The notes below the pieces were generated by a model. That model did no database searches. It worked only from the letters and a program-made list of their open reading frames with translations, and was not told the DNA's origin. This document shows, piece after piece, positions 4,424-48,434 of a stretch of 64,000 bases of DNA. Source of the DNA: an uncultured Chloroflexia bacterium (GTDB lineage: Bacteria > Chloroflexota > Limnocylindria > Limnocylindrales > CSP1-4). The position numbers and the translations under genes are program-made. Position 1 is the first letter of the stretch; each line of letters opens with the position of its first letter. The stretch lies in NCBI GenBank assembly GCA_963828165.1, contig CAWHDR010000001.1:1056001-1120000 (forward strand). The letters run 5' to 3'.

Positions 4424-4950
4424 CGCTCCATCCGGTCCGGGCGTGGAGCACGCCGCTCCCCGTGGTCTCGATGCGTCTCGGCACGGCGGCGCGCCTCGGC
4501 GAGGCGGTCGGCGAGGGTCGGGTCGGCCGGGAGGCCGCTGCGATCGGGAGCGCGGTCCGGTGCTCGGTCGGGGCTGGACTCCTTGGACGGTACGGCCGAC
4601 GCGGCTTCCCCCTGGCCCAGCCCGCCTCCGGTCTCGCCCACGAATGGCATGTGCTGCCGATCGACGGCGTCCAGGCTCATCCGCAGGGCCGCCGTCTTCT
4701 GCGTCGCGACCTCGCGGACGTAGGCGGTTTCCTCGTCGGTATCCATGGGCCGACCGCGAACGATGCCCTTGGGCTTGCCGACCATCAGCCACGCCAGGTG
4801 GTAGCGGTCCATGCTGCCCCACGCTCGCGACAGCAGATCGTCCGACAGCTGGAGCCAGGTCTGGAGCGCGCCCATCGACGGCGCGGCGACGAGCCGGTCA
4901 CCTTCCGCGATCAGCTGGCGCGTCCGGTCGATGAGCTCGTCGCGGGTCAC
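4420..4950 (-). CDS. Hypothetical protein
   Basis: Coding-like ORF coupled to flanking genes. Confidence 0.6.
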   Translation of the reverse strand: MTRDELIDRTRQLIAEGDRLVAAPSMGALQTWLQLSDDLLSRAWGSMDRYHLAWLMVGKPKGIVRGRPMDTDEETAYVREVATQKTAALRMSLDAVDRQHMPFVGETGGGLGQGEAASAVPSKESSPDRAPDRAPDRSGLPADPTLADRLAEARRRAETHRDHGERRAPRPDRMER

Positions 4951-5873: not shown

Positions 5874-7378
5874 TCGACCTCCTCGCCGCCGATCGCGCCG
5901 AGCGGCCCGCGCGCCTTGTCCACGGTCTCGTCCCACTCGGCGGCCGGATCGCTGCCCCACGTGATGCCACCACCGACATGGAGCGTCAGCCGCCGACCGT
6001 CCGCGACGAACGTTCGGATGAGGATGCTCGTCTGCATCGCCCCGTCCGGCCCGATCCAGCCGAGCGCTCCCGTGTACGGCCCGCGCCGCACCGGCTCGAG
6101 GCCCTCGAGGATCTCCATGGCGCGGATCTTCGGGGCCCCGGTGATCGAGCCGCCCGGAAAGCTCGCCGCCAGCAGGTCGAACGCGTCACGGCCGGAGGCC
6201 AGACGGCCGGTCACCGTCGAGACGAGGTGCTGCACGGCAGCGGTGCGCTCCAGGCGGCACAGCCGCGGGACCCGGACGGTGCCGGGCTCGCACACGCGTC
6301 CCAGGTCGTTTCGCAGGACGTCGACGATCATCACGTTCTCGGCACGGTCCTTCGCGCTGGAGAGCAGCTCGCACGCCAGCCGGCGGTCTTCTGCGCGGTC
6401 GCGACCCCGGGGCCGCGTGCCCTTGATCGGGATCCGATGGCGACCAGGCCGTGCGAGTCGACCGAGAGGAACGGCTCCGGCGAGGCCGACAGGAGGGCCC
6501 GTGGCCGGCCGGTCTCCTGCGACGGCCCGAGATCAAGGTAGGCGGAGAACAGCGACGGATCGCCGGTGCGCAGGCGGCGGTACTCGCCCCAGGGGTCGCC
6601 CGAATACGGCGTCTCCAGCCGGCGTGTCAGGTTGGCCTGGTAGAGGTCGCCGAGCGCGATGTGGTCACGGATCCGCTCCACGCCGGCCTCGTACTGCGCG
6701 CGCGACAGGGACGATCGGAAGCGGAGGCCCTCGCCAGCGCGTGGGTCCGCATCGACGGCGGCGCTGGCGGTCGCGTTGGACGTCGCGGCCGTCGATGCGG
6801 CCGTCATGGCGGACAGCCACGCCGCGGACCTCTGCCCAGTCGGACTCGTCAGCCGTGCGTGGACGTCATCCAGACGCCGGGCGAGCCGTCGACCGTCGCC
6901 GTCCAGGGCACGACCGCCCAGCCACGCGTGGCCGGTCCGTCGATCCCAGGCGACCACCCAATCGTGCAGAGCCAGGCGGAGCGGCGGCAGACCCTGGTCG
7001 TCCTCCGCGACGGAGGGCAGGCGCTCCAGCACGTGACCAAGGTCGTACCCGAGGAAGCCCGACGAGCCCGCCCAGGAACCGGGGGGCATCGGCCGGGACG
7101 ACGGGCGTCGGGTCCAGCCGCGCCAGGAGGCGTCGAGCCACGGCGAACGGGTCCGGCCCGGCAGCGGGCGCTTCGAGCACGGCCACTGGATCTGCGGTCA
7201 TGTAGGTCCAGCGAGCGTTCCGGCCGGGCCGGGCGCTCTCGAGCAGGGCCAGGCCGGGCAGGTCGCGGAAGGCCTCGGCAGCGTCGATGGATCGCGTGTT
7301 CGCGATCCGCTCGGGCAGGCGACGCAACCGGAGCGGGGCCGTGGGCGAACCGGAAAGGTTGGGGCCGACGGGGATCAC
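5870..7378 (-). CDS. pabB: Aminodeoxychorismate synthase component I (frameshifted)
   Basis: GFLGYDLG, GDLYQANL, SASPEPFL, ENVMIVDVLRNDLGRV, FPGGSITGAPKIRAMEI over several frames. Confidence 0.85.
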
Positions 7379-13523: not shown

Positions 13524-15113
13524 TTAGAGGAGCTCCCCGTGGGCAGCCGCGGTGGGTTCGCCCTCGCGTGGGCGTGGCTCTTCGCCGGGGCCGTACTCGG
13601 TCGCCGCGGCGTTCGCCTCGCCCCCCGGATCCGCGATCTCGCCGGCCTCGATCACGCGCAGCGGCGCCCCGGCCTGGCCCTCGAGTGCGCCGACGCCGAA
13701 CGGCACCCATTTCGAGGGGTCCTGGAGGCGGTGGGCCTCGGTGTTGCCGCGCTGGTGGACCTCATCGAATCCCTTTGGCTCGATCCACATGCGCTCACCC
13801 TCGAGCAGTCCCAGGACGCCCGACTGGCCGGGCTCCGGGCGCTCGTGCTGGCAGTACGCGCAGGCCGCCGAATCGTGCTTTCGATAGTTCTCCGGCTCTT
13901 CGTACGTCGTGATGTAGCCCTCGTAGTTGCGCAGCACCACCTTGTGATCCGAGTACGAGATCAGGTAGTTGGGCATGACCGGGATCTTGCCGCCGCCGCC
14001 GGGCGCATCGATCACGTAGGTCGGCACGGCGTAGCCCGATGTATGGCCGCGCAGGCCTTCCATGATCTCGAGCCCCTTGCCGACGGGCGTCCGGAAGTGC
14101 CCGGAGCCTTCGACGAGGTCGCATTGGTACAGGTAGTACGGCCGGATCCGGTTGGCGACGAGCTTGTGGACGAGCGAGCGCTGGATGTGGACGCAGTCGT
14201 TGACGCCGGCCAGCAGCACGCTCTGGTTGCCCACGGGCAGCCCGGCCCTGGTCAGCTTGTCGACCGCGCGCGAGACCTCCGGGGTGATCTCGTTCGGGTG
14301 GTTGAAGTGCAGGTTGATCCAGAGTGGGTGGTACTTCTCCAGGACCTCACACAGCTCGTCGTCGATGCGCTGTGGCAGGAACACCGGCACCCGCGACCCG
14401 ATCCGGATGATCTCGATGTGCGGGATCTCGCGCAGGCCGCGCAGGATCTTCTCGAACAGCTTCGGCGCGAGGGTCAGGCCGTCGCCGCCCGAGATCAGGA
14501 CGTCGCGAACCTGCGGGGTGCGGCGAAGGTATTCGAGCTGCGCCTCGTGATCACGGCTGTTGAAGTTCTGGGTGGGGTCGCCCACGATCCGCGACCGGGT
14601 GCAGTACCGGCAGTACGAGGCGCACTGCGTCGTCACGAGCATCAACACCCGGTCTGGATACCGGTGGACGAGCCCGGGCACCGGCGAGTGGCGGTCCTCG
14701 GCGAGCGAGTCCTCCATCATCGCGGTGAAGGCCTCGTGCTCCGAGCCGATCGGGATGACCTGGCGCCGGATCGGGTCGTCGGGGTCGTCCGGGTCGATGA
14801 GCGAGATGAAATACGGCGTGATGTCGACGCGGAACTTGTCCGGCGCCGAGAGGCCCTCGCGCTCTTCCTCGGTGAGGTTGAGGATCTGCCCGACCTCCTC
14901 GAGGTCGTTGACGCGGTGCGAAAGCTGCCAGCGCCAGTCGTTCCACTGCGCGTCGGGCACGTCCTCGTAGATCGGGGCGCGCCGGCTGACGGCGGGGCGG
15001 CCGTCCGGACCCAGCACCCGCGCAGGGTCGGACAGGTTCACGAACGGCGCCTCCGCCGCGGCGCGGGCCGTTGCCTGGTGCGCGACGGCGGTCTTGATCT
15101 CCTGGGCGTCCAC
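13524..15113 (-). CDS. kamA: Lysine 2,3-aminomutase (radical SAM)
   Basis: HRYPDRV, CASYCRYCTR, PYYLYQCD, GHTSGYAVPTYVIDAPGGGGKIP. Confidence 0.93.
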   Translation of the reverse strand: MDAQEIKTAVAHQATARAAAEAPFVNLSDPARVLGPDGRPAVSRRAPIYEDVPDAQWNDWRWQLSHRVNDLEEVGQILNLTEEEREGLSAPDKFRVDITPYFISLIDPDDPDDPIRRQVIPIGSEHEAFTAMMEDSLAEDRHSPVPGLVHRYPDRVLMLVTTQCASYCRYCTRSRIVGDPTQNFNSRDHEAQLEYLRRTPQVRDVLISGGDGLTLAPKLFEKILRGLREIPHIEIIRIGSRVPVFLPQRIDDELCEVLEKYHPLWINLHFNHPNEITPEVSRAVDKLTRAGLPVGNQSVLLAGVNDCVHIQRSLVHKLVANRIRPYYLYQCDLVEGSGHFRTPVGKGLEIMEGLRGHTSGYAVPTYVIDAPGGGGKIPVMPNYLISYSDHKVVLRNYEGYITTYEEPENYRKHDSAACAYCQHERPEPGQSGVLGLLEGERMWIEPKGFDEVHQRGNTEAHRLQDPSKWVPFGVGALEGQAGAPLRVIEAGEIADPGGEANAAATEYGPGEEPRPREGEPTAAAHGELL

Positions 15114-39715: not shown

Positions 39716-39791
39716 GCGCCTGTAGCTCAGTGGATAGAGCGTCGGCCTCCGGAGCCGAAGGTCGCAGGTTCGAATCCTGTCGGGCGCGCCA
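39716..39791 (+). tRNA. tRNA-Arg(CCG)
   Basis: GCGCCTGTAGCTCAGTGGATAGAGC..CTCCGGA..GGTTCGAATCC..CGGGCGCGCCA. Confidence 0.96.
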
Positions 39792-39910
39792 TTACAACCT
39801 GGGGTAGGGCGATGGCCAGCCCACGGTCGTACGCGGCAGTCGTGAGGCGAGCGCTGACGAACCTCGGGCCCGCGACGAGGATCCGCTCGTAGACAGCGTG
39901 CACCAAGTCA
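39727..39910 (-). pseudogene. Probable recombinase C-terminal remnant reading through attL
   Basis: DLVHAVYERILVAGPRFVSARLTTAAYDRGLAIALPQVVMARPTG-FEPATFGSGGRRSIH*; family assignment from recollection only. Confidence 0.5.
39776..39796 (+). repeat. attL core (tRNA-Arg 3' end)
   Basis: CCTGTCGGGCGCGCCATTACA, identical at 48414-48434. Confidence 0.9.
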
Positions 39911-39966
39911 ATACCGCAGCGATAGCCGTCCTGGCAGCCGTCAGGGCGGCTCTCTTGTCTCGGTCG

Positions 39967-40245
39967 TCAGAAGTCGCGATACCGCCAGTGGACTTCGCCG
40001 CGCTCCGGAGCTAGACGTGAAAGCCGTACCAGCCACACGAGTCCCAGGACGATCCCGGCCCCACCGATGTACGGCAGGAGCGCCACCCACCCCCATCCCG
40101 CGTAGAACATCGGCTCACCTATGGTCCCGGGCTTAGCGACCAAGACGATTGCCAAGACCACGGGCGCCAGGAAGCCAATAGTGAGTTCTAGGCGGATCGC
40201 GGCCCCCGCGCGGTCCAGGCGTCGCTGGCGTTCCTCGTATTCCAT
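39967..40245 (-). CDS. Small membrane protein (2 TM)
   Basis: Hydrophobic ORF ending HWRYRDF. Confidence 0.55.
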   Translation of the reverse strand: MEYEERQRRLDRAGAAIRLELTIGFLAPVVLAIVLVAKPGTIGEPMFYAGWGWVALLPYIGGAGIVLGLVWLVRLSRLAPERGEVHWRYRDF

Positions 40246-40426
40246 GCCGGCACCGTACGCCCCGCGGTCAAGGAGGCCGACCCTGAGTCGTTCGACGTCG
40301 AGGCGTAGGCCGCGTCACCGGGCGCGGCACTGCAACGCCCAATTGACGACAAGCGGTGGTCCACGACTTTCGCTGCGCCGGCAGAGATTCCCAAACTGTG
40401 GGCACCGTAAGCGAGGGGTCGTCGGG

Positions 40427-40930
40427 ATGGCCTATTGGGATTCCCAGCCAAATCGCACCAGGCTCATCGTCGCCGCGATTCTGCTCGGCCTCGGCCTGGG
40501 CGGGTTCTTCGATGGCATCGTCCTACATCAGATTCTGCAATGGCACCACATGGTGAGCACACCGACCCCGCCGAATACGCTGGAGAACTTGGAGCTGAAC
40601 ACGCTGGGGGACGGGATTTTCCATGCCGCGACGTGGCTCCTGACCCTCACCGGCGTTCTTGTCCTGACGACCTCGAACGGCGCACGCCACCAGGAAGAGG
40701 GGGGCCGCACGCTAAGTGGCGGGATGCTCGTGGGTTGGGGATCGTTCAACGTGGTCGAAGGACTGGTCGACCATCACCTCTTGGGGCTCCATCATGTTCG
40801 CCCGGGTCCCGACGAGCTCGTCTATGACGTTGGCTTCCTGATCTGGGGCGGCATCATGCTTCTGGTCGGCGTCGCACTCATCCGCCGGGCTCGTCAGTCA
40901 GCGCCGGCTGGTCCAGCATCCCGGAACTGA
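40427..40930 (+). CDS. DUF2243 membrane protein
   Basis: GFFDGIVLHQILQWHHM, DGIFHA, EGLVDHHLLGLHHVR. Confidence 0.88.
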   Translation: MAYWDSQPNRTRLIVAAILLGLGLGGFFDGIVLHQILQWHHMVSTPTPPNTLENLELNTLGDGIFHAATWLLTLTGVLVLTTSNGARHQEEGGRTLSGGMLVGWGSFNVVEGLVDHHLLGLHHVRPGPDELVYDVGFLIWGGIMLLVGVALIRRARQSAPAGPASRN

Positions 40931-41239
40931 CCCCCGAGAAGAGCTCGACCGCGCACAGCGGACTAGGGGGAGTGCCTTATCGACGGGCCCCCTCACGGAG
41001 GGCACTTACCCAGCCCCCCGGCTACGCAGGGGGAAGGACGATCCAGTTAGGGGCAACTCGTGGATTGGCCAGTCTGACTGGCGCGACCGGGGCAGACGCC
41101 GCGTGGCCACTCAACGAAAGCGCCCTTGATCACACGTCACGGGTTGAGCTCGGGCCAGTCCAGGCGCGCCGTTCCTCCCATGAATGGACGCTATTCAGTC
41201 ATCGTGTGAGCCACCTTTCGAGTGGCTCGTTAGCGCGGT

Positions 41240-44200
41240 CATGGACCGGCCGTAATCACCCTGACCTCGTCCATTCCATTGCCGACTTGGAATTGGATGG
41301 TCATGGATTCTCCATCCGCGTGGATCGTGATCAATTCATCGTTTGCGTTGCCAGCCGGGAGGAAGAAATCCGCGCCTCGCGCTGGCCAAGCGTGGGGTAG
41401 GCGGTGCCGGACGCGCCGAGGAAGTCCGAGGCGTCCAGGCTCGCGTCTGATGTGACTACGGCGAGGATCCGCTCTCCGAAATCGACGGTACCCCGGTAGT
41501 ACTTGAAGTCGCCGGTCTCGAAGCAGCAGTACTCGCCCGGCCGGTCCGCGTGCAAGATGTACGAGCGGATCGCGTTTGCGGGCGCAAGAGTGCCGCCAGG
41601 GGGCGGCGACCGCGGGTGGATGTCATGTCCGCTCCTAGAGTCGGCGGGACTAGCACGTCGACCGTCAGCGGGGCGACGTTCGGACATCCTGTGCACGTTG
41701 CTCGAATATCAGCGCAACGTCATCGGCGACACTCTCCCCGCTATCAGAGCACGTCTTGTAGGACGCCGCCTGGCCAGCCTTCAACACACACGTCTCGGTG
41801 TCGAACGCGTTCAGCTTGAGAGACGGTGGCGGATCGATGTGCTCGAGGTTGATGGACGCAGACACGTCCACTTCGGCGTCGGCGGTTGCGACGATCCGCA
41901 CCTGGTCGGTGCCTCCACCCACCTGGAGCGCAGCGCCAGGGTCTGGGCATCCAGCCAGGCGACGGCATCCTTGGGGTTGATGTAAGCGTTTCCGGGCTGC
42001 TTCTTTAGATTGACCTCAGTTCCGCGGAAGGCCTGGTCGGGAAGGAGCGTCCCGGACGGCCCTAGGACATCGCTGGCGCGCAGAGTGTCGTCACGCACGA
42101 TGACGCCGAGGATGCTTCTGGGCAAGCTTCACTAGGACATCGCGGACAAGATACTGGCGTCTGCTGGCGTGTATGCCTGATCGCGTGAACGAGGAAGCTT
42201 CGCAGGCCTGCCCTGCAAGATCATCGCGGCGACAACGCTGGGTCGCTGTTAGCGCAGGCGAATAGGTGCCTGGGATTCGATGTCGACTTCAGGTCTCGCA
42301 CAAGATTGTGCTGTCCGGCCTGCTCGCTGAGGAGCGCAGCGTTTCGCGTCGTCCTATCCGGCGTGTGTCGGCCGGTCTGCTCGAGCGAGCACGCTTCATC
42401 GATGCTGTAGATCGCGTTACACGAAATGACGAACAGCGATGGCACTTGATTGCCGGCGCGGTAGACTGCCTGACCTCAACGATGTGTTCCCAGCCGGGAT
42501 CCGGCCAGAGAGGCGCTCAGGGTGACGGGGTCTTGCAGGGCAAGGGGCACCAGTCCCCGCCATCGATCCTGTAGTCGCCGCCGGCCACGCCGGAGAGCGC
42601 GTCAAACACGGCGGCTTCGAGGGCCCAACCTCCGAGGTCGACAGAGCGATGGCAGGCTGATCGCGGTTCAGCGGCGGGGTCATGTCAATGCTTATGTAGT
42701 CGACGCGGTGGCACAGTTGCCGCGGGTCGCAGCTCGCCTGACTCTCGTACTCCCGTTCGCGCCTCTGTCGCGGCGATGTGTCTGCGGGTCTGTCGGCGCG
42801 CCAGAGCTCGGGTCGGCATCCGTAACCTGCCAGTCGATGGTGACGGCGCGCGGTACCAGCCTGCGGGATTTTCCGCGCGGTCTCGAACGGGACCACGACG
42901 GGAGCTGCGTATCGGTAGCGCGGTCGCGGACATACAGCTGATAGATGCGGAGGGCGCTCGACCGGCACTTGATGTGAAGGACGCGTAACGGCGTCGTCAC
43001 TGAGGTCGACGCTTGATGACTGATCAGGCTGCTGCGCTCGGTCGCCGCTCCATCGCTGATCACCTCTCGCAGTCGGTGGGACGCAGGCCAAAGAGGAACG
43101 TATTCGTTCCTCCAGGTGCGGCGACCAGATCGGGTGTTGGCGGGGAAGACGACATACCGCGTCCGGCGTCACTCGCGAGTAATACTATGGCGTTCGACTG
43201 CGTGCGTCGGGCCTGGCATCGATCCGGACGGTGGTATCGGCATCGCGGTCTCGGAGAAAGATGTCGCGCGCGCGTTGGTGTCATTGCTAACAAGAGGCGC
43301 GAACGTTTCGACGACAACGAGGCTCCGTCGTCGTGACACGCCCGTGGCACCGTACGAGGATCGGAGAAGGTGTCGGCCGCTGACGTTGCCGGTTGCGACG
43401 CTCACGCGATCAGTGATACCGCCAGCCACGTCGCGCAGGAAAACGTCGCGTTGCGTTGGTATCTACGTCAACGACATCATCCGCCTCGCTGATGAAGCCA
43501 ACAAAGTTTCCGTTGGCGCTCGCGAAACGCAACCACACGTCCCCGCTAGGGAGCTGCCCGTCGTTGGTCAGACCTACGGCTTCGATCGTGTGCTCGCGAG
43601 GTCCATGCGGAAGACGCCGTAATACGGACTCGCCGCTTGCCCGTCGAAGAGGTCATCGCGACCGGAGTCGAAGATGAGGTACCGCGCATCGTCACTGAGG
43701 ATCGCTGTGCTCGGTTCGACATCGATGAAGCGGGTCGTACCGGCCGTTCGATCTCTGAGGTACAGGTTGTACCGGAACGCCGGGACCGGCTCGTCGACGA
43801 GGTTTGAGGCAACAGACGAGAAGGCAACGAAGCGGCCGTCGGCGGAAATGTCCTGCAGGAACGAAAGACCGTCCGCCGGGCCTCCCGTCTTCGAGACGCT
43901 CACGAGCTCGACGACTCCAGTGGCCACATGCTTGATGAAGACGTCGTCTTGGCCATTCGTATCAGCATCGTCGGCAAGCAGATTGGATGCCGACGAAGTG
44001 AAAGTGATAAGGGACCCGCCATCCGCCAGGCGACCGCCGATGGTGTGCCCGTTGCCGGCCGTGCCATCCTCCGCGCGGCTAGCCATGACCGTAGTGCCAT
44101 CCGCCGCGAGGACTAGCTGACCCGAACCCGTGAGCGGCGAGGCGCTCCACGCGAGGGGAACCGTTACGAGCAGCGTCGCAAGGAGCACGCGTGCCCGTAC

Positions 44201-44266
44201 GAGCCCGTGCCCACGGATGCCCCAATGTCCGGCAATCTCATCGGAGGACGCAGAGTCAGGACGCAT
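41240..44266 (-). pseudogene. Large secreted protein, multiply frameshifted: TolB/PD40 beta-propeller plus two tandem C-terminal beta domains
   Basis: DTNGQDDVFIK, ISADGRFVAFSSVASNLV, LYLRDR; repeated ILGVIVRDDTLRASDVLG / ILAVVTSDASLDASDFLG. Confidence 0.6.
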
Positions 44267-44528
44267 GCATAGCCCTCGCTATCCGCGGACGGAGTGTCTG
44301 ATCAAGGGCAATCCAGGGACGCGGGACTGCAAGCCTAAATGCAGGGTCCCAACCCGTCGTCATCCAAATGCACCAGACCACAACGGCCTCACGTCGAGGG
44401 GCCACGCGCCGGATGCCCCAAGGTTACGGACAACCGGCTCCGGAGCGTCGCGGCGAACTGGACCGTCGCCGAAAATGGAGAGAGCTGCCGAGGCACCATC
44501 CGCTCATGGTGTGCTGTTGCGTCGGCAC

Positions 44529-45368
44529 CTAGTCCGCGTGCCCGGGAACGTCCTCCACGACGACGACGAAGTCGCCATACCGGTCACGGAGCGTTGAAGC
44601 GATGGCGTCCGTGAGGCCCTGGACGCCGACCTCGACCGTGTTCTTGAGGGTGTCTGGGCCGGTCGAGACAACGTCGATCCCCTCGGCCTCGAGGTCATCC
44701 CACTCGTGAGTGATCCGGTCCGTTAGCGCGGTGAGCTCCGCCCAGGAGCGCTTGGTCCAGACGTACCGCACCTCCACTCCGTCGCGCTCGAGGCAGCGCG
44801 CCAGGCGTAGGGTCTCGGTTCTACCCTCGACGATCGACAGGACGTGCCGCTGGCTCCCGGGCGGGTCCTTCCATATCCCGCCGAAGAGGTCCGGACGGCC
44901 AACCGAAGACCAAAAGGCGATGGGTGCGGCGCTATCGATGTAGAGGCCGTAGGTCCGCAACGCGTCCACCTCCGCGGGCCGCAGTGCGATCCCGATGAGC
45001 TCGATGTCCGATCGCGGATCGGCGATCGCCGCGTCGATGGCCGCGTCGGTCTTCCCGAACTCCGGATACGACAAGTCCACGCCGTTGCGGATATTGGTCG
45101 CCGCGATGCGGTCGAGGCGTTGCAGGTGGTCACATTCCTGGTCGGACGGTCGCGGCGGGGCTTCGAGGGCTTCCCCGACGGATGGCATCGGCGTGTCCGT
45201 CGGGTCGGCCTTCGCGGTGGCTCGAACGATCGCGGGGCTGGCCGACGGGTTCGTTTGGTTGCTAGACCCGGCGCGGGAGACATTGGTCGGGTCCCCGCCA
45301 GCCGGCCGGGAACAGGCTATCGCCGCGAACGCGATAGCCACGACCAGGATCAGCAGAACCGCTCGCAC
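44529..45368 (-). CDS. Lipoprotein resembling a stand-alone alpha-lytic protease pro-region
   Basis: AIAC lipobox; FGGIW.D, RSWAELTALTDRI, DTLKNTVEVGV..LRDRYG. Confidence 0.6.
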   Translation of the reverse strand: MRAVLLILVVAIAFAAIACSRPAGGDPTNVSRAGSSNQTNPSASPAIVRATAKADPTDTPMPSVGEALEAPPRPSDQECDHLQRLDRIAATNIRNGVDLSYPEFGKTDAAIDAAIADPRSDIELIGIALRPAEVDALRTYGLYIDSAAPIAFWSSVGRPDLFGGIWKDPPGSQRHVLSIVEGRTETLRLARCLERDGVEVRYVWTKRSWAELTALTDRITHEWDDLEAEGIDVVSTGPDTLKNTVEVGVQGLTDAIASTLRDRYGDFVVVVEDVPGHAD

Positions 45369-45768
45369 AACCACTTCGGACTCCGGGGGGTGGGACGGTA
45401 CGCATCGCATCGTTGTGACTCCGCTCAGGACGAAGCCCAAGCCGCAGGCCCTGCCGGCCGTCGACATCGCTCCCTTGAAGCCAAGCGTCCTGGGCTCCGA
45501 ACGCACGCGACGGCACTAGTTGCAGGAGCGACCGATCGTACGACCGTCACCCCAAGGTCGCATTGTGTCAATTCGCCCGTCGGACACACCGCGGTTTCAA
45601 TGCCACGGTAGACACGATTGACTCATGGTGTGGTGGGCGACGGAGCCGCCAATGGCCCTGCGCGCACCCAGGCGGCCGCGATCGTTTGCGCCCCTCGACC
45701 GTCGCCGAGTTCTTGTGTATGCCTTCGATTTCGCGGGCTCGACGAGACCGCAGAAGGCGAAGCCGCGC

Positions 45769-47245
45769 CTACCGGGAGGGCCAGACGGGCTGCCAGGCGA
45801 ACGCGCCGGGCGGCGCCTCGGTCTCGAGCACGAACGCGCCGTCGGCGATGCGACGTCGGTCGTGGCCGTCGCGGTTCACAACCCACACCCCCTGATCGCT
45901 AGATTGGAGGTCCACGACATAGCCGACCGCCCGGCTGTTCGGTGCCCAGCCTGACGGGAAGAACTCGGGCAGATCTCGGACCAACACATGCCTCTCCCCG
46001 TCGGCGACATCCACGACTGAGAGCGTCGAGCCGCTGAAGAGCCAGGCGGACCGGTCGGGAGCGAGGTCTGTTCGGAAGGCCGAGATCTCGTCGGGCGTGA
46101 CGCCCATGGGTCCGATGTCGCGGTCTGTCCCGGCGTCGACCGGGCGACCGATGAAGCGCTCCGCGGGCGCGTCGGCGATGAGGATCGTTTCGTCGTCGAC
46201 GAAGCCGAACGGGGAGTCATCGAAGTCCGCCGCCCACTCACCGTTGGCGAGGGGCACCGGATGGAGCTGGGCGTCGTCAAGAGAGCCCGCCACGATTCCC
46301 GCGGCGCGGGGCATCGTTCCGTGTCGCGGCCACGATGCGTCCGCCCGAATCGGACCACGTGACAGCACTCAGGTGACAGACGCAGCCGGACGCGATCGGC
46401 CGGGCGGGGCCACCGGTCCGCGAGACGATCCAGATGTTGGTTGCCTCGGGCACGTGCGTATTGAGGCGCTCGGGAACGGCGAGCATCGATCCGTCGGGAG
46501 ACCAACTCGGGCGTCCAGGAAGGAAGGAGTCGTCGTGGGACAGCAGCGGTCCCGCGAGGCCAGCTTCTGACCAGACGTAGAGTTCCCTGACCTCGCCGGG
46601 CTCAGTGCCTACGACGACAAAGGCGAGCGCGCGTCCATCGGGCGACCAGACCAGCGGCCCGCGGAATGGGATCCAGTCGCGGGGACCCTCGGGCGTGGCG
46701 GAGCGCTGCGGGCTCGCGTAGTCCGCGAATCGGGCGAGGGAGCAGATGGCGCCGCTCTCGGGGTCGATGAGGAAGAGCTCCGGAACTTCGCCGCTTCCCC
46801 AGATGGCGATCCAGCCGCTCTCGGCCGTACTCGGAGACGCTGGGGCTGGGCCGGCCGTCCACGTCGTCGTGGTTCGCGCGGCGGCCGCCTGCGCGTCGGT
46901 GCAGGAGAACGTGCTTGACATGACATCGGGCGCGGGCGCCATCGACGGCCCAAATCGGGGCGGGAGGGAAGGCGGGTCCGCCTGTCGCTGGTTCCAGGAG
47001 CCGACGAGCAACCCGCCGGCGAAGACCGCAGCTCCGAGCAGGGCGGCCACAACGGCCACGCGAAGGATCATCCGTGTGTCCCTGAACTTCGGACGACGCC
47101 AGACGACCGTGGGTCGCTGGGTTGGCTGGCTTCCCAACGCGGCCGCACGCCGTACGATCGCCATAGAGTCGACCGGCCGGCGAGGCCCGGCGTAGTCATC
47201 GAGCGCGACCGTGAGTCGCCGCTCGAATCTGCTCAGCTCACTCAT
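45769..47245 (-). CDS. Putative anti-sigma factor: TM plus TolB-like propeller (frameshift near 46370)
   Basis: Overlaps sigma stop; FERRL..AL..YA N-terminus, WSPDG repeats, FAWQP end. Confidence 0.65.
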
Positions 47246-47786
47246 CGCCGAGCTCCTTCTCAAGTCGATGGAGCAGCCGCGCCAGACGGGCGCGGGTGCC
47301 TGAAGGTGTTAGTCCGGTCGCGTACGCAAGCTCCGTCGCATCGAAGCCAGCGACGTAGCGCATCGCCAGCAGCGCACGGTCCTCTGGCCGGAGGCGGGCA
47401 ACGGCGTTTCGGAGATCGATCGCGAGGATCGCGCTCGTCGCACTGTCCTCGGCGGCCACGTCGTGGAGCTGATCGACGGTGATCTCGACCAGCGCGCGGC
47501 GAGAGCGCGACCGAACGATCTGGCGAGCTTCGTTCACGGCAATCGACACGAGCCAGGCCCGCAGACGAGCAGGGTCGCGGACTGACCCCAGTTTCAACCA
47601 GGCCTTCGACCAGGCCGCGTCGACGGCCTCGTCCGCGATCGCCTGGTTCCCGACGACCACGACGCAGACGCGGCGCATGTCTTCGTGATGCGCACCGACG
47701 ATCGACGCAAACGCTCTCTCGTCGCCGGCCACTGCCGACGCCAGCAGGCGCTCAATCTCACCGGTCGGGCTGGCCACCGCTGTCAT
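47238..47786 (-). CDS. ECF RNA polymerase sigma factor
   Basis: GDERAF, RAWLVSIAVNEAR, LRPEDRALLAMRY..G. Confidence 0.88.
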   Translation of the reverse strand: MTAVASPTGEIERLLASAVAGDERAFASIVGAHHEDMRRVCVVVVGNQAIADEAVDAAWSKAWLKLGSVRDPARLRAWLVSIAVNEARQIVRSRSRRALVEITVDQLHDVAAEDSATSAILAIDLRNAVARLRPEDRALLAMRYVAGFDATELAYATGLTPSGTRARLARLLHRLEKELGDE

Positions 47787-48289
47787 ATCTCATGGATGCC
47801 GCCCGGCGGGCAACTGATTCGGTGACGCGAGATGACGTGGACGAAAGGATCCACAGCCTGTCCAGCCTTATCCAGCGGAATCGGGACGTCGTCGGCCGAT
47901 CGTCGGATCACTGGCCCCGCGCCATTGTCCCGCGAGGCGGCCGAGCCGGAGCCCGTCGAGGAGCCGATCCAGAAGCGCGCCATGCGTGGACCCAAGCCCA
48001 TCACGCCGGCGGCCGGCTCGCAGGGCGACGCCGGATAGAACCACCCCCGCCAATCGATCTTCAGGCCCTGGGCGCCAGCCCGGGGCCCTTCTCCGTTCGG
48101 TCGCGTCGTTGGCCACGGTCGGGCTCATCGCGCGACGTGAGCCAACGTGGGCGCCCACGGGCCAGCCTCGTCGGATCCCCGATCAGCGACCGGGATAATT
48201 CGCGAAACTCGGCCGCGTGCACACAGTCGGGAGGCGCGGTCAGCGGGAAGGTGCGTCTCCACATGGGCTACCCCGCCCCGGTCGGTCGA

Positions 48290-48430
48290 CGCACCCTTCG
48301 TCGAGTTGCACGAGCGGCACAGCACGGCGGTGTTGCCGATGTCGAACGGCGCCGCGACCCACTCGCCGCGGCCCTCGATCGGGATCTCGTAGGTTGCTAA
48401 CGCGCGCCCAACACCTGTCGGGCGCGCCAT
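48290..48430 (-). pseudogene. attR-side recombinase tail fused to an HNH endonuclease C-terminal fragment
   Basis: MARPTG-VGRALATYEIPIEGRGEWVAA then PFDIGNTAVLCRSCNSTKG. Confidence 0.55.
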
Positions 48431-48434
48431 TACA
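48414..48434 (+). repeat. attR core
   Basis: Identical to 39776-39796. Confidence 0.9.

Follow-up and report, generated by a model that had tools for sequence, protein, structure and literature searches.

The closest described counterpart of the system examined here is dsiB, a serine recombinase gene of Dehalococcoides islands that lies at the tmRNA gene ssrA and has the same layout (McMurdie et al., 2011, PMC3146451). That article includes the speculation that full function of dsiB may require the circular form. We analysed a 64,000-nt stretch of DNA from an uncultured Chloroflexia bacterium (hereafter the window), in which positions 39776-48434, next to a tRNA-Arg(CCG) gene, are very probably the decayed remnant of an integrative element belonging to a family common in Candidatus Limnocylindria (Chloroflexota). 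With similarly high probability, the family enzyme is a large serine recombinase (LSR) of about 500 aa targeting the 3' ends of tRNA-Arg genes. A serine integrase with an internal phage-type attachment site (attP) is known already; new here are the tRNA-Arg target and a conserved C-terminal tail that is probably folded, as judged from structure prediction. Literature searches outside the subscription journals found no paper on a tRNA-targeting serine integrase with attP inside its own gene, the nearest being McMurdie et al. (2011).

As far as the accessible part of the dsiB report goes (PMC3146451), the two systems are alike in occurring in Chloroflexota, in having a CcrB-like serine recombinase of ~500-540 aa beside attL on the reverse strand, in a direct repeat of ~20 bp formed by the 3' end of a small-RNA gene, and in tandem islands. 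They differ in the target, which is ssrA for DsiB and a set of tRNA-Arg isoacceptors for the LSR family, and in the accompanying genes, because DsiB is described together with the small serine recombinase DsiA and a ParB/Mom module, neither of which was seen in the two relatives' elements that were annotated. Moreover, the overlapping part of DsiB (compared here through its published description) was reported as divergent, whereas the tail encoded by the excised form of the present family is conserved and predicted to be folded.

Among tyrosine recombinases, the Mx8 and SSV integrases extend across attP according to the accessible part of the Islander paper (PMC4383910). Mx8 IntP/IntX (Tojo et al., 1996, as cited in PMC4383910) has another catalytic mechanism and another attachment (att) site architecture. 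In the SSV-type archaeal integrases the open reading frame (ORF) likewise spans attP, and insertion into a tRNA gene partitions the integrase gene (PMC4383910); however, these are tyrosine recombinases of archaeal viruses, and the split takes a large part of the gene, not a tail of ~26 residues. The preliminary description of the window, made from its sequence, had drawn an analogy with mycobacteriophage BPs, where attP lies inside a coding sequence and integration changes the C-terminus of the product (accessible parts of PMC4557955 and PMC3694055), but where it is the repressor gene that is affected and integration is carried out by a tyrosine recombinase. In the present case the gene crossed by att is that of the recombinase itself, and the analogy, while apt as regards an att site within a coding sequence, is looser than that with dsiB at ssrA or with Mx8 IntP/IntX. 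A C-terminal degradation tag reportedly has a role in the BPs system. The LSR family resembles phiC31, Bxb1 and Listeria A118/LI in domain order and fold, in its Resolvase domain and in a short palindromic att site around a central dinucleotide; we know of no description of these systems in which attP lies inside the integrase coding sequence. The accessible part of the 2015 Islander paper (PMC4383910) called serine integrases specialised on tRNA genes unknown, and the LSR family shows that they exist, with three tRNA-Arg isoacceptors as targets.

Ends of the island and the interrupted reading frame

The features at the two ends of the island were as follows.

39716..39791, plus strand: tRNA-Arg(CCG), intact target gene, attB-derived (ARAGORN; Rfam RF00005, 72 bits)
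39727..39774, minus strand: integrated-form tail FEPATFGSGGRRSIH and stop, antisense to the tRNA (ORF list; translation)
39776..39796, plus strand: 21-nt direct repeat, copy at attL (tRNA positions 61-76 and TTACA)
39797..39909, minus strand: LSR gene remnant, last ~37 codons before the core (DLVHAVYERILVAGPRFVSARLTTAAYDRGLAIALPQVV) (BLASTP, DNA homology, tblastn)
within 39797..39909, minus strand: P' half-site, the same stretch as the recombinase remnant
39909..39969, no strand assigned: hairpin-bearing repeat of ~60 nt (further copies in the own genome by blastn: C5:107611-107668, 93%; C1:22481-22540, 84%)
48125..48352, minus strand: HNH endonuclease gene lacking its 5' part, with residues 83-158 retained (158-aa McrA-like family; protein and DNA homology)
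48350..48413, minus strand: P arm (att site), coding for the first part of the excised-form tail (VGRALATYEIPIEGRGEWVAA) (conserved at relatives' distal cores; BLASTP to P0215)
48402..48427, no strand assigned: imperfect palindrome with 12-nt arms GCGCGCCCAACA / TGTCGGGCGCGC around CC (inverted-repeat search)
48414..48434, plus strand: attR copy of the 21-nt direct repeat, displaced tRNA 3' end (repeat search)

The perfect 21-bp repeat flanking 8.6 kb that had been noticed initially was confirmed by a repeat search, by shuffling and by a count over the whole assembly. The two copies were 100% identical over 21 nt, with a spacing of 8638 nt, and enclosed 8.6 kb at the 3' end of tRNA-Arg(CCG). 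When up to two mismatches were allowed, the pattern had two matches in the window against 0.00 expected (100 shuffles); across the 3.31-Mb, six-contig assembly just these two copies were found, and the reversed control gave none. The assembly holds a single tRNA-Arg(CCG) gene, that of the window, and its final 16 nt are supplied by the element. At attR, the palindrome arms (48402-48413 and 48416-48427) were 92% complementary and were separated by 2 nt (CC, 48414-48415), which are also the first two bases of the 21-nt repeat. The distal repeats in five relatives all started at this CC, corresponding to tRNA position 61. This arrangement, an imperfect inverted repeat around a central CC, fits a short serine-integrase att site with a non-palindromic central dinucleotide, and we infer that the crossover dinucleotide is the CC at 39776-39777 in the attL copy.

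On the left side, the minus-strand ORF 39727..39906 (MVHAVYERILVAGPRFVSARLTTAAYDRGLAIALPQVVMARPTGFEPATFGSGGRRSIH*) crosses attL and ends antisense to the tRNA, reading exactly as first quoted. Its suggested resemblance to the C-terminus of a large serine recombinase was borne out by BLASTP, in which the remnant was identical at 29 of 37 positions to residues 437-473 of P0121 (E 5e-18), a 496-aa ORF of a genus relative that carries a Resolvase domain; the peptide is therefore not without recombinase homologs. In a tblastn search of the genome with P0121, the window copy matched residues 437-496 alone. The ~115 nt following the tRNA (39794-39909) were conserved in many genomes of the genus, where they likewise adjoin this tRNA directly. 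Homology to the LSR ended at 39909, exactly where the ~60-nt repeat begins, and this repeat may mark the truncation point of the gene. No match to the Resolvase, Recombinase or Phage_integrase domains was obtained anywhere in the window with Pfam, and the window copy is without the N-terminal resolvase-type catalytic domain (PF00239) and its serine nucleophile, in agreement with the initial view of an immobile copy. The window holds a remnant of a gene of the LSR family, not a member of it, and the loss of the catalytic domain leaves the island incapable of moving on its own and the window copy a dead relic. An intact member was not found by tblastn in the assembly, which is 87.7% complete. 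Both half-sites of the island look intact at the sequence level, and a related LSR acting in trans might still excise it.

The frame at attR, which is in the same codon phase as the attL ORF, is 101 aa long and reads MARPTGVGRALATYEIPIEGRGEWVAA... Its first 27 residues were identical at 24 of 27 positions to residues 480-506 of P0215, a 511-aa family member (BLASTP, E 8e-13), so that the join produced by excision would be collinear with a real protein form. The corresponding excised-form tail (VGRALATYEIPIEGRDEW...RLA) is encoded by the ~62 nt to the left of the distal core, the P arm, from which the window retains VGRALATYEIPIEGRGEWVAA before the HNH sequence takes over. The preliminary description had the attR frame continuing the recombinase and excision giving the protein another C-terminus; this stood for the first 27 residues, which are recombinase tail, but from about residue 28 onwards the frame belongs to a fused fragment of a truncated HNH endonuclease.

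The HNH piece, made up of the last 75 residues of the attR ORF, had P0001 as its best relative (89% identity, 74% query coverage, E 5.9e-36), and a search for its family returned 437 proteins at E <= 0.01, for which McrA-like is the name used in the source. It is without the half bearing the DH catalytic motif, and the complete motif including the catalytic His (DH...N...CxxCN) is absent from the fragment. Its Pfam matches (PF01844 / PF14279) were below threshold (16.4 vs 21.4 bits), and full-length relatives carry both domains. DNA homology to the HNH genes of more than 20 relatives ended at 48350-48356, and the ~62 nt between this end and the distal core, together with the core, formed a separate conserved segment. 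The same P-arm segment was found at the distal tRNA-end repeats of relatives (L063 16868-16953; L055 14251-14331 and 16011-16110; L061; L025), the arm without the core covering 16868-16935 in L063 and 14251-14315 and 16011-16077 in L055. In a three-way alignment, the join between HNH gene and P arm lay in a short GC-rich microhomology (~48352-48362), which makes the fusion a deletion product and the continuity of the frame past residue 27 accidental; in this way the HNH piece came to be in frame with the P arm.

Two C-terminal forms of the recombinase in intact relatives

The left-end sequence of the island corresponded to the 3' end of intact minus-strand ORFs in L020 (7352..8842, 496 aa) and L063 (3613..5115, 500 aa), and L055 carried a truncated version of 338 aa. 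Pfam placed the Resolvase domain (PF00239) in both L020 (E 8.5e-10) and L063 (E 1.6e-11), above the cut-off. In the LSR alignment (A3), R21, S23 and Q27 were invariant, and Cys292, Cys294, His314 and Cys318 were conserved in the family. The AlphaFold2 model of P0215 had a mean predicted local distance difference test score (pLDDT) of 86.6. Foldseek ranked full-length serine integrases first (E 1.2e-13 to 8.1e-8, probability 1.00), the best PDB matches being 9y66, 9dxd, phiC31 9tep, Bxb1 9iu2 and LI 4kis; TM-scores were low (0.2-0.4), as expected for flexible multi-domain chains. Together, the Foldseek matches and the conserved Cys and His residues gave the relatives a recombinase domain, a zinc ribbon and a coiled coil.

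The position of the ORF end was surveyed at 80 family loci from genome contigs, nearly all of them Limnocylindria or Chloroflexota metagenome-assembled genomes. The ORF ended antisense within tRNA-Arg(CCG) at 44 loci, within tRNA-Arg(TCG) at five and within tRNA-Arg(TCT) at four, that is, inside a tRNA-Arg gene at 53 of the 80. An attP-form end was flagged by a regular expression at six loci and judged by eye at four more (L069, L077, L107, L137); the ORF ran off the contig at eight loci, and nine ends were of other kinds. A stop just before the core was seen in one truncated copy, L122. Intact relatives of the kind that the preliminary description proposed to look for, located at tRNA-Arg(CCG) with att inside the integrase coding sequence, were accordingly common, and they read across the core instead of stopping before it. 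The ORF crosses the att core without a stop, and the integrated and excised states encode different C-termini.

A survey of proteins, comprising the best 120 of 553 database relatives, gave a similar division. Tails antisense to tRNA-Arg(CCG) were found in 76 proteins, tails of the tRNA-Arg(TCT) type in six and of the tRNA-Arg(TCG) type in seven (89 tRNA-Arg antisense tails in all), and attP-form tails in 16; four proteins had a short ending, ..ARPTVSEFTT, and 11 tails were other or truncated. Eleven of the 16 attP-form tails ended in -LA, -SA, -VA or -PA, which is a hint only as regards a degradation tag. Two attP-form loci, L073 (4341 nt) and L118 (6587 nt), took up whole contigs, whereas others were embedded in contigs of 143-480 kb and had no tRNA nearby (within 3 kb), as tandem arrays would. 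In L073 and L118, terminal direct repeats of 15-200 nt were absent from both, and free circles are not shown by them.

Every tRNA target in L066-L145 was a tRNA-Arg (three isoacceptors), and more distant representatives ended antisense to other tRNAs. At two loci (L071 4442-5845 and L109 4256-5662) a mini-insert of ~1.3 kb with its own copy of the core was located between the LSR gene and the tRNA, giving the LSR a third tail, ..ARPTVSEF(R/T)T, the ending also of the four database proteins mentioned above; from its arrangement, it may be a satellite using the same att site.

When the P arms were translated in the LSR frame, L063 and L055 gave (M/L)ARPTG-VGRALATYEIPIEGRDEWLAAARRLA-stop, and L061 and L025 gave close variants with the same stop position. 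Nine unique gapless arms, which are related sequences yielding counts that are not independent, had pairwise differences at codon positions 1/2/3 of 108/57/189 over codons 6-24 and of 39/31/114 over codons 14-23, which encode the motif. As many as four synonymous codons were in use at individual Gly and Ala positions of the arms. The motif ..IPI.GR.EW.. was kept in representatives only 37-55% identical overall, with ends that were mostly -SA, -LA or -TA. In the P0215 model, a strand (491-494) and a helix (500-510) were predicted in the attP-form tail, whose pLDDT was 83-89. In contrast, residues 476-496 of the integrated form had a pLDDT below 50 and no secondary structure, although their columns were equally conserved in the input. 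We read the attP-form tail as the native C-terminus and consider it likely that the enzyme genuinely includes this excised-form tail as a folded part.

In this family attP is thus contained in the 3'-terminal part of the LSR gene, with the palindrome centred on the CC at tRNA positions 61-62. When the element is excised or in tandem (attP form), the ORF ends in the conserved tail of ~26 residues, VGRALATYEIPIEGRDEWLAAARRLA; upon integration, it crosses the core and ends with 15 residues antisense to the tRNA, FEPATFGSGGRRSIH. Integration would remove part of a small C-terminal subdomain, and the resident integrase would differ from the incoming one. The chances seem evenly divided as to whether this predicted loss changes the activity, direction or stability of the enzyme and makes the prophage-state integrase functionally distinct; attenuation or altered direction would be a little more likely than a pure stability effect. 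More tentatively still, the DNA state could be hard-wired into the enzyme. Under this scheme, for which we see at best one chance in several, only the excised or tandem form would encode the folded strand-helix tail (..IPIEGRDEW..RLA), and integration would switch the protein between an integration-competent form and an excision-competent (or inactive or unstable) form with no separate state-sensing factor, so that a serine integrase would have its own intrinsic switch of directionality or commitment.

Alternative explanations and significance

The 21-nt repeat might have arisen by chance or by local duplication of the end of the tRNA gene, with the 8.6 kb being ordinary chromosome. The interior is indeed free of mobility genes and carries cargo of chromosomal appearance (an ECF sigma factor, PD40-repeat proteins, DUF2243), and an empty site was not found in the relatives searched; yet no chance matches of the repeat are expected (0.00), family-specific att arms occur at both ends in the right orientation, and the 16-nt core recurs 4-13 kb downstream of tRNA-Arg(CCG) in five relatives, which leaves this explanation very improbable. 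Alternatively, the gene split by the core might be that of the HNH endonuclease, with its N-terminal half at attL and its C-terminal half at attR. Such a view could draw on the 89% identity of the attR ORF to the C-terminal 75 residues of the 158-aa HNH family and on a faint likeness, by eye, of the attL peptide to the N-terminal part of that family. It is refuted by the arrangement of the junction, where the HNH DNA homology stops at 48352, 62 nt short of the core, in a microhomology typical of deletion, and by the occurrence of the same 62 nt at relatives' distal att sites without an adjacent HNH gene. In addition, the attL peptide matches the LSR (E 5e-18), and no more than six of the 80 loci have an HNH gene at a distance of 3 kb or less from the LSR.

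A third explanation treats the read-through as incidental: the functional C-terminus would end before the core, both tails would be dispensable, and attP would merely abut the gene. This is close to the position of McMurdie et al. (2011, PMC3146451), in the accessible part of which the ssrA-antisense part of dsiB is held unlikely to be functional, its alignments being divergent there. Several points favour it over a tail with a function of its own. Integrated-form genes are intact and full length in most loci, and the tRNA-antisense form could be fully functional with a dispensable tail. The region just past the core doubles as a DNA-binding half-site, which accounts by itself for some conservation; arm codons 6-12 hardly vary, third positions included, as such a half-site would require, and part of the conservation of the arms is therefore not at the protein level. 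Other points count against the reading that we prefer. The codon-position counts carry the interdependence of the nine arms, and the AlphaFold2 input consisted of shallow alignments of 30 sequences, where confidence in a tail is not functional proof. The Pfam Recombinase domain (PF07508) was not detected in the LSR relatives at E <= 0.001. Excision, circles and both isoforms are postulated from sequence and prediction. Finally, no empty site was found with the left flank plus tRNA (41 genomes) or with the right flank (61 genomes, 4 matching, including the own genome); none of the loci matching a flank contains a tRNA or brings the two flanks together, so that the insertion is deduced from structure and not from synteny. 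On the other hand, length, stop position and the motif PIEGRDEW of the attP-form tail are preserved among relatives, with four synonymous codons at single Gly and Ala positions, and the motif persists at 37-55% overall identity. At 40-65 nt from the crossover, the motif falls beyond the palindrome arms of 12 nt, and the attP-form tail is predicted to be folded while the tRNA-antisense tail is not. On this balance, we consider incidental read-through doubtful, though it is much the strongest of the three alternatives.

With a C-terminus altered by integration itself, the family offers a natural pair of isoforms (~511 aa vs 496 aa) that could reveal whether direction, activity or turnover is tuned by a C-terminal subdomain. 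Large DNA is inserted chiefly with serine integrases as tools, and the control of their direction is under active structural study; several structures of integrases with recombination directionality factors, released in 2026, were among the Foldseek matches. The layout is common in this bacterial group and the copy in the window is dead, its value being that of a marker of the LSR family and not of a working system. For annotation, recombinase ORFs ending in a tRNA gene are real junctions, not miscalls, and short conserved P arms flag old element ends; in-frame chimeras such as the fusion of P arm and HNH gene are not to be taken as proteins.

Island interior, an apparently complete element and other repeats

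The interior of the island contained the following features.

39967-40245, minus strand: 92-aa ORF (ORF list)
40121-40930, plus strand: DUF2243 protein (Pfam)
43574-44266, 44529-45506 and 45769-46368, minus strand: ORFs (ORF list)
46277-47263, minus strand: PD40-repeat protein (Pfam)
47238-47786, minus strand: extracytoplasmic function (ECF) sigma factor (Pfam)

No mobility genes were found between 39967 and 47786 in the ORF list or with Pfam, and Pfam detected none of the backbone genes of the L063 element described below in the interior. The stretch 40930-43570 (~2.6 kb) had a G+C content of 0.61-0.63 vs 0.66-0.70 nearby and may hold degraded or novel genes. Pfam assigned no family to 10-11 ORFs, including those of the 40.9-43.6 kb stretch, or to one that overlies the HNH fragment on the plus strand. 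Between the island's ends, DNA similarity to the collected relatives was confined to the HNH piece and the P arm.

An apparently complete family element of 13.3 kb was present in L063 (3613-16953). It carries the LSR, a 907-aa PrimPol + AAA_25 replication protein, an HNH gene and a Lnt-like acyltransferase, along with a PF04439 protein (streptomycin adenylyltransferase family), Amidase_2, helix-turn-helix (HTH) proteins, of which a small one adjoins the P arm, and cargo.

Copies of the 16-nt core 4-13 kb downstream of tRNA-Arg(CCG) were located in G017 (twice), G022, G109 (twice), G046 and G097, and the gene is an integration hotspot. LSR-like sequence followed the tRNA directly in 15 of the 17 aligned tRNA-Arg(CCG) loci, the window included, the exceptions (judged by eye) being L024 and L061.

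A second relic of the same LSR family was detected in the own genome outside the window, in two parts 2.3 kb apart (C1:160619-160882 and C1:163179-163253), within a region of C1 (150-175 kb) without any tRNA. Its C-terminal remnant was 46-48% identical to residues 387-477, and its P-arm-like tail was 72% identical.

The 158-aa HNH family was patchy and multi-copy in the genus, occurring in 30 of 121 genomes (for example, with 8 matches in G062 and 7 in G097). Its matches broke off at many C-terminal positions (residues 114-140), as if often truncated or variable-ended.

A second type of repeat was observed at tRNA-Arg(CCG) in five relatives, in which exact copies of the 5' half of the gene (about -3 to 42, up to the anticodon loop) lay 1.3-5.7 kb upstream (L022 4822-4863; L023 1305-1345; L026, reverse, 1751-1793; L027, reverse, 4705-4750 and 7197-7241; L062 3434-3470). 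The position of these copies suggests another element family that would integrate on the other side of the tRNA.

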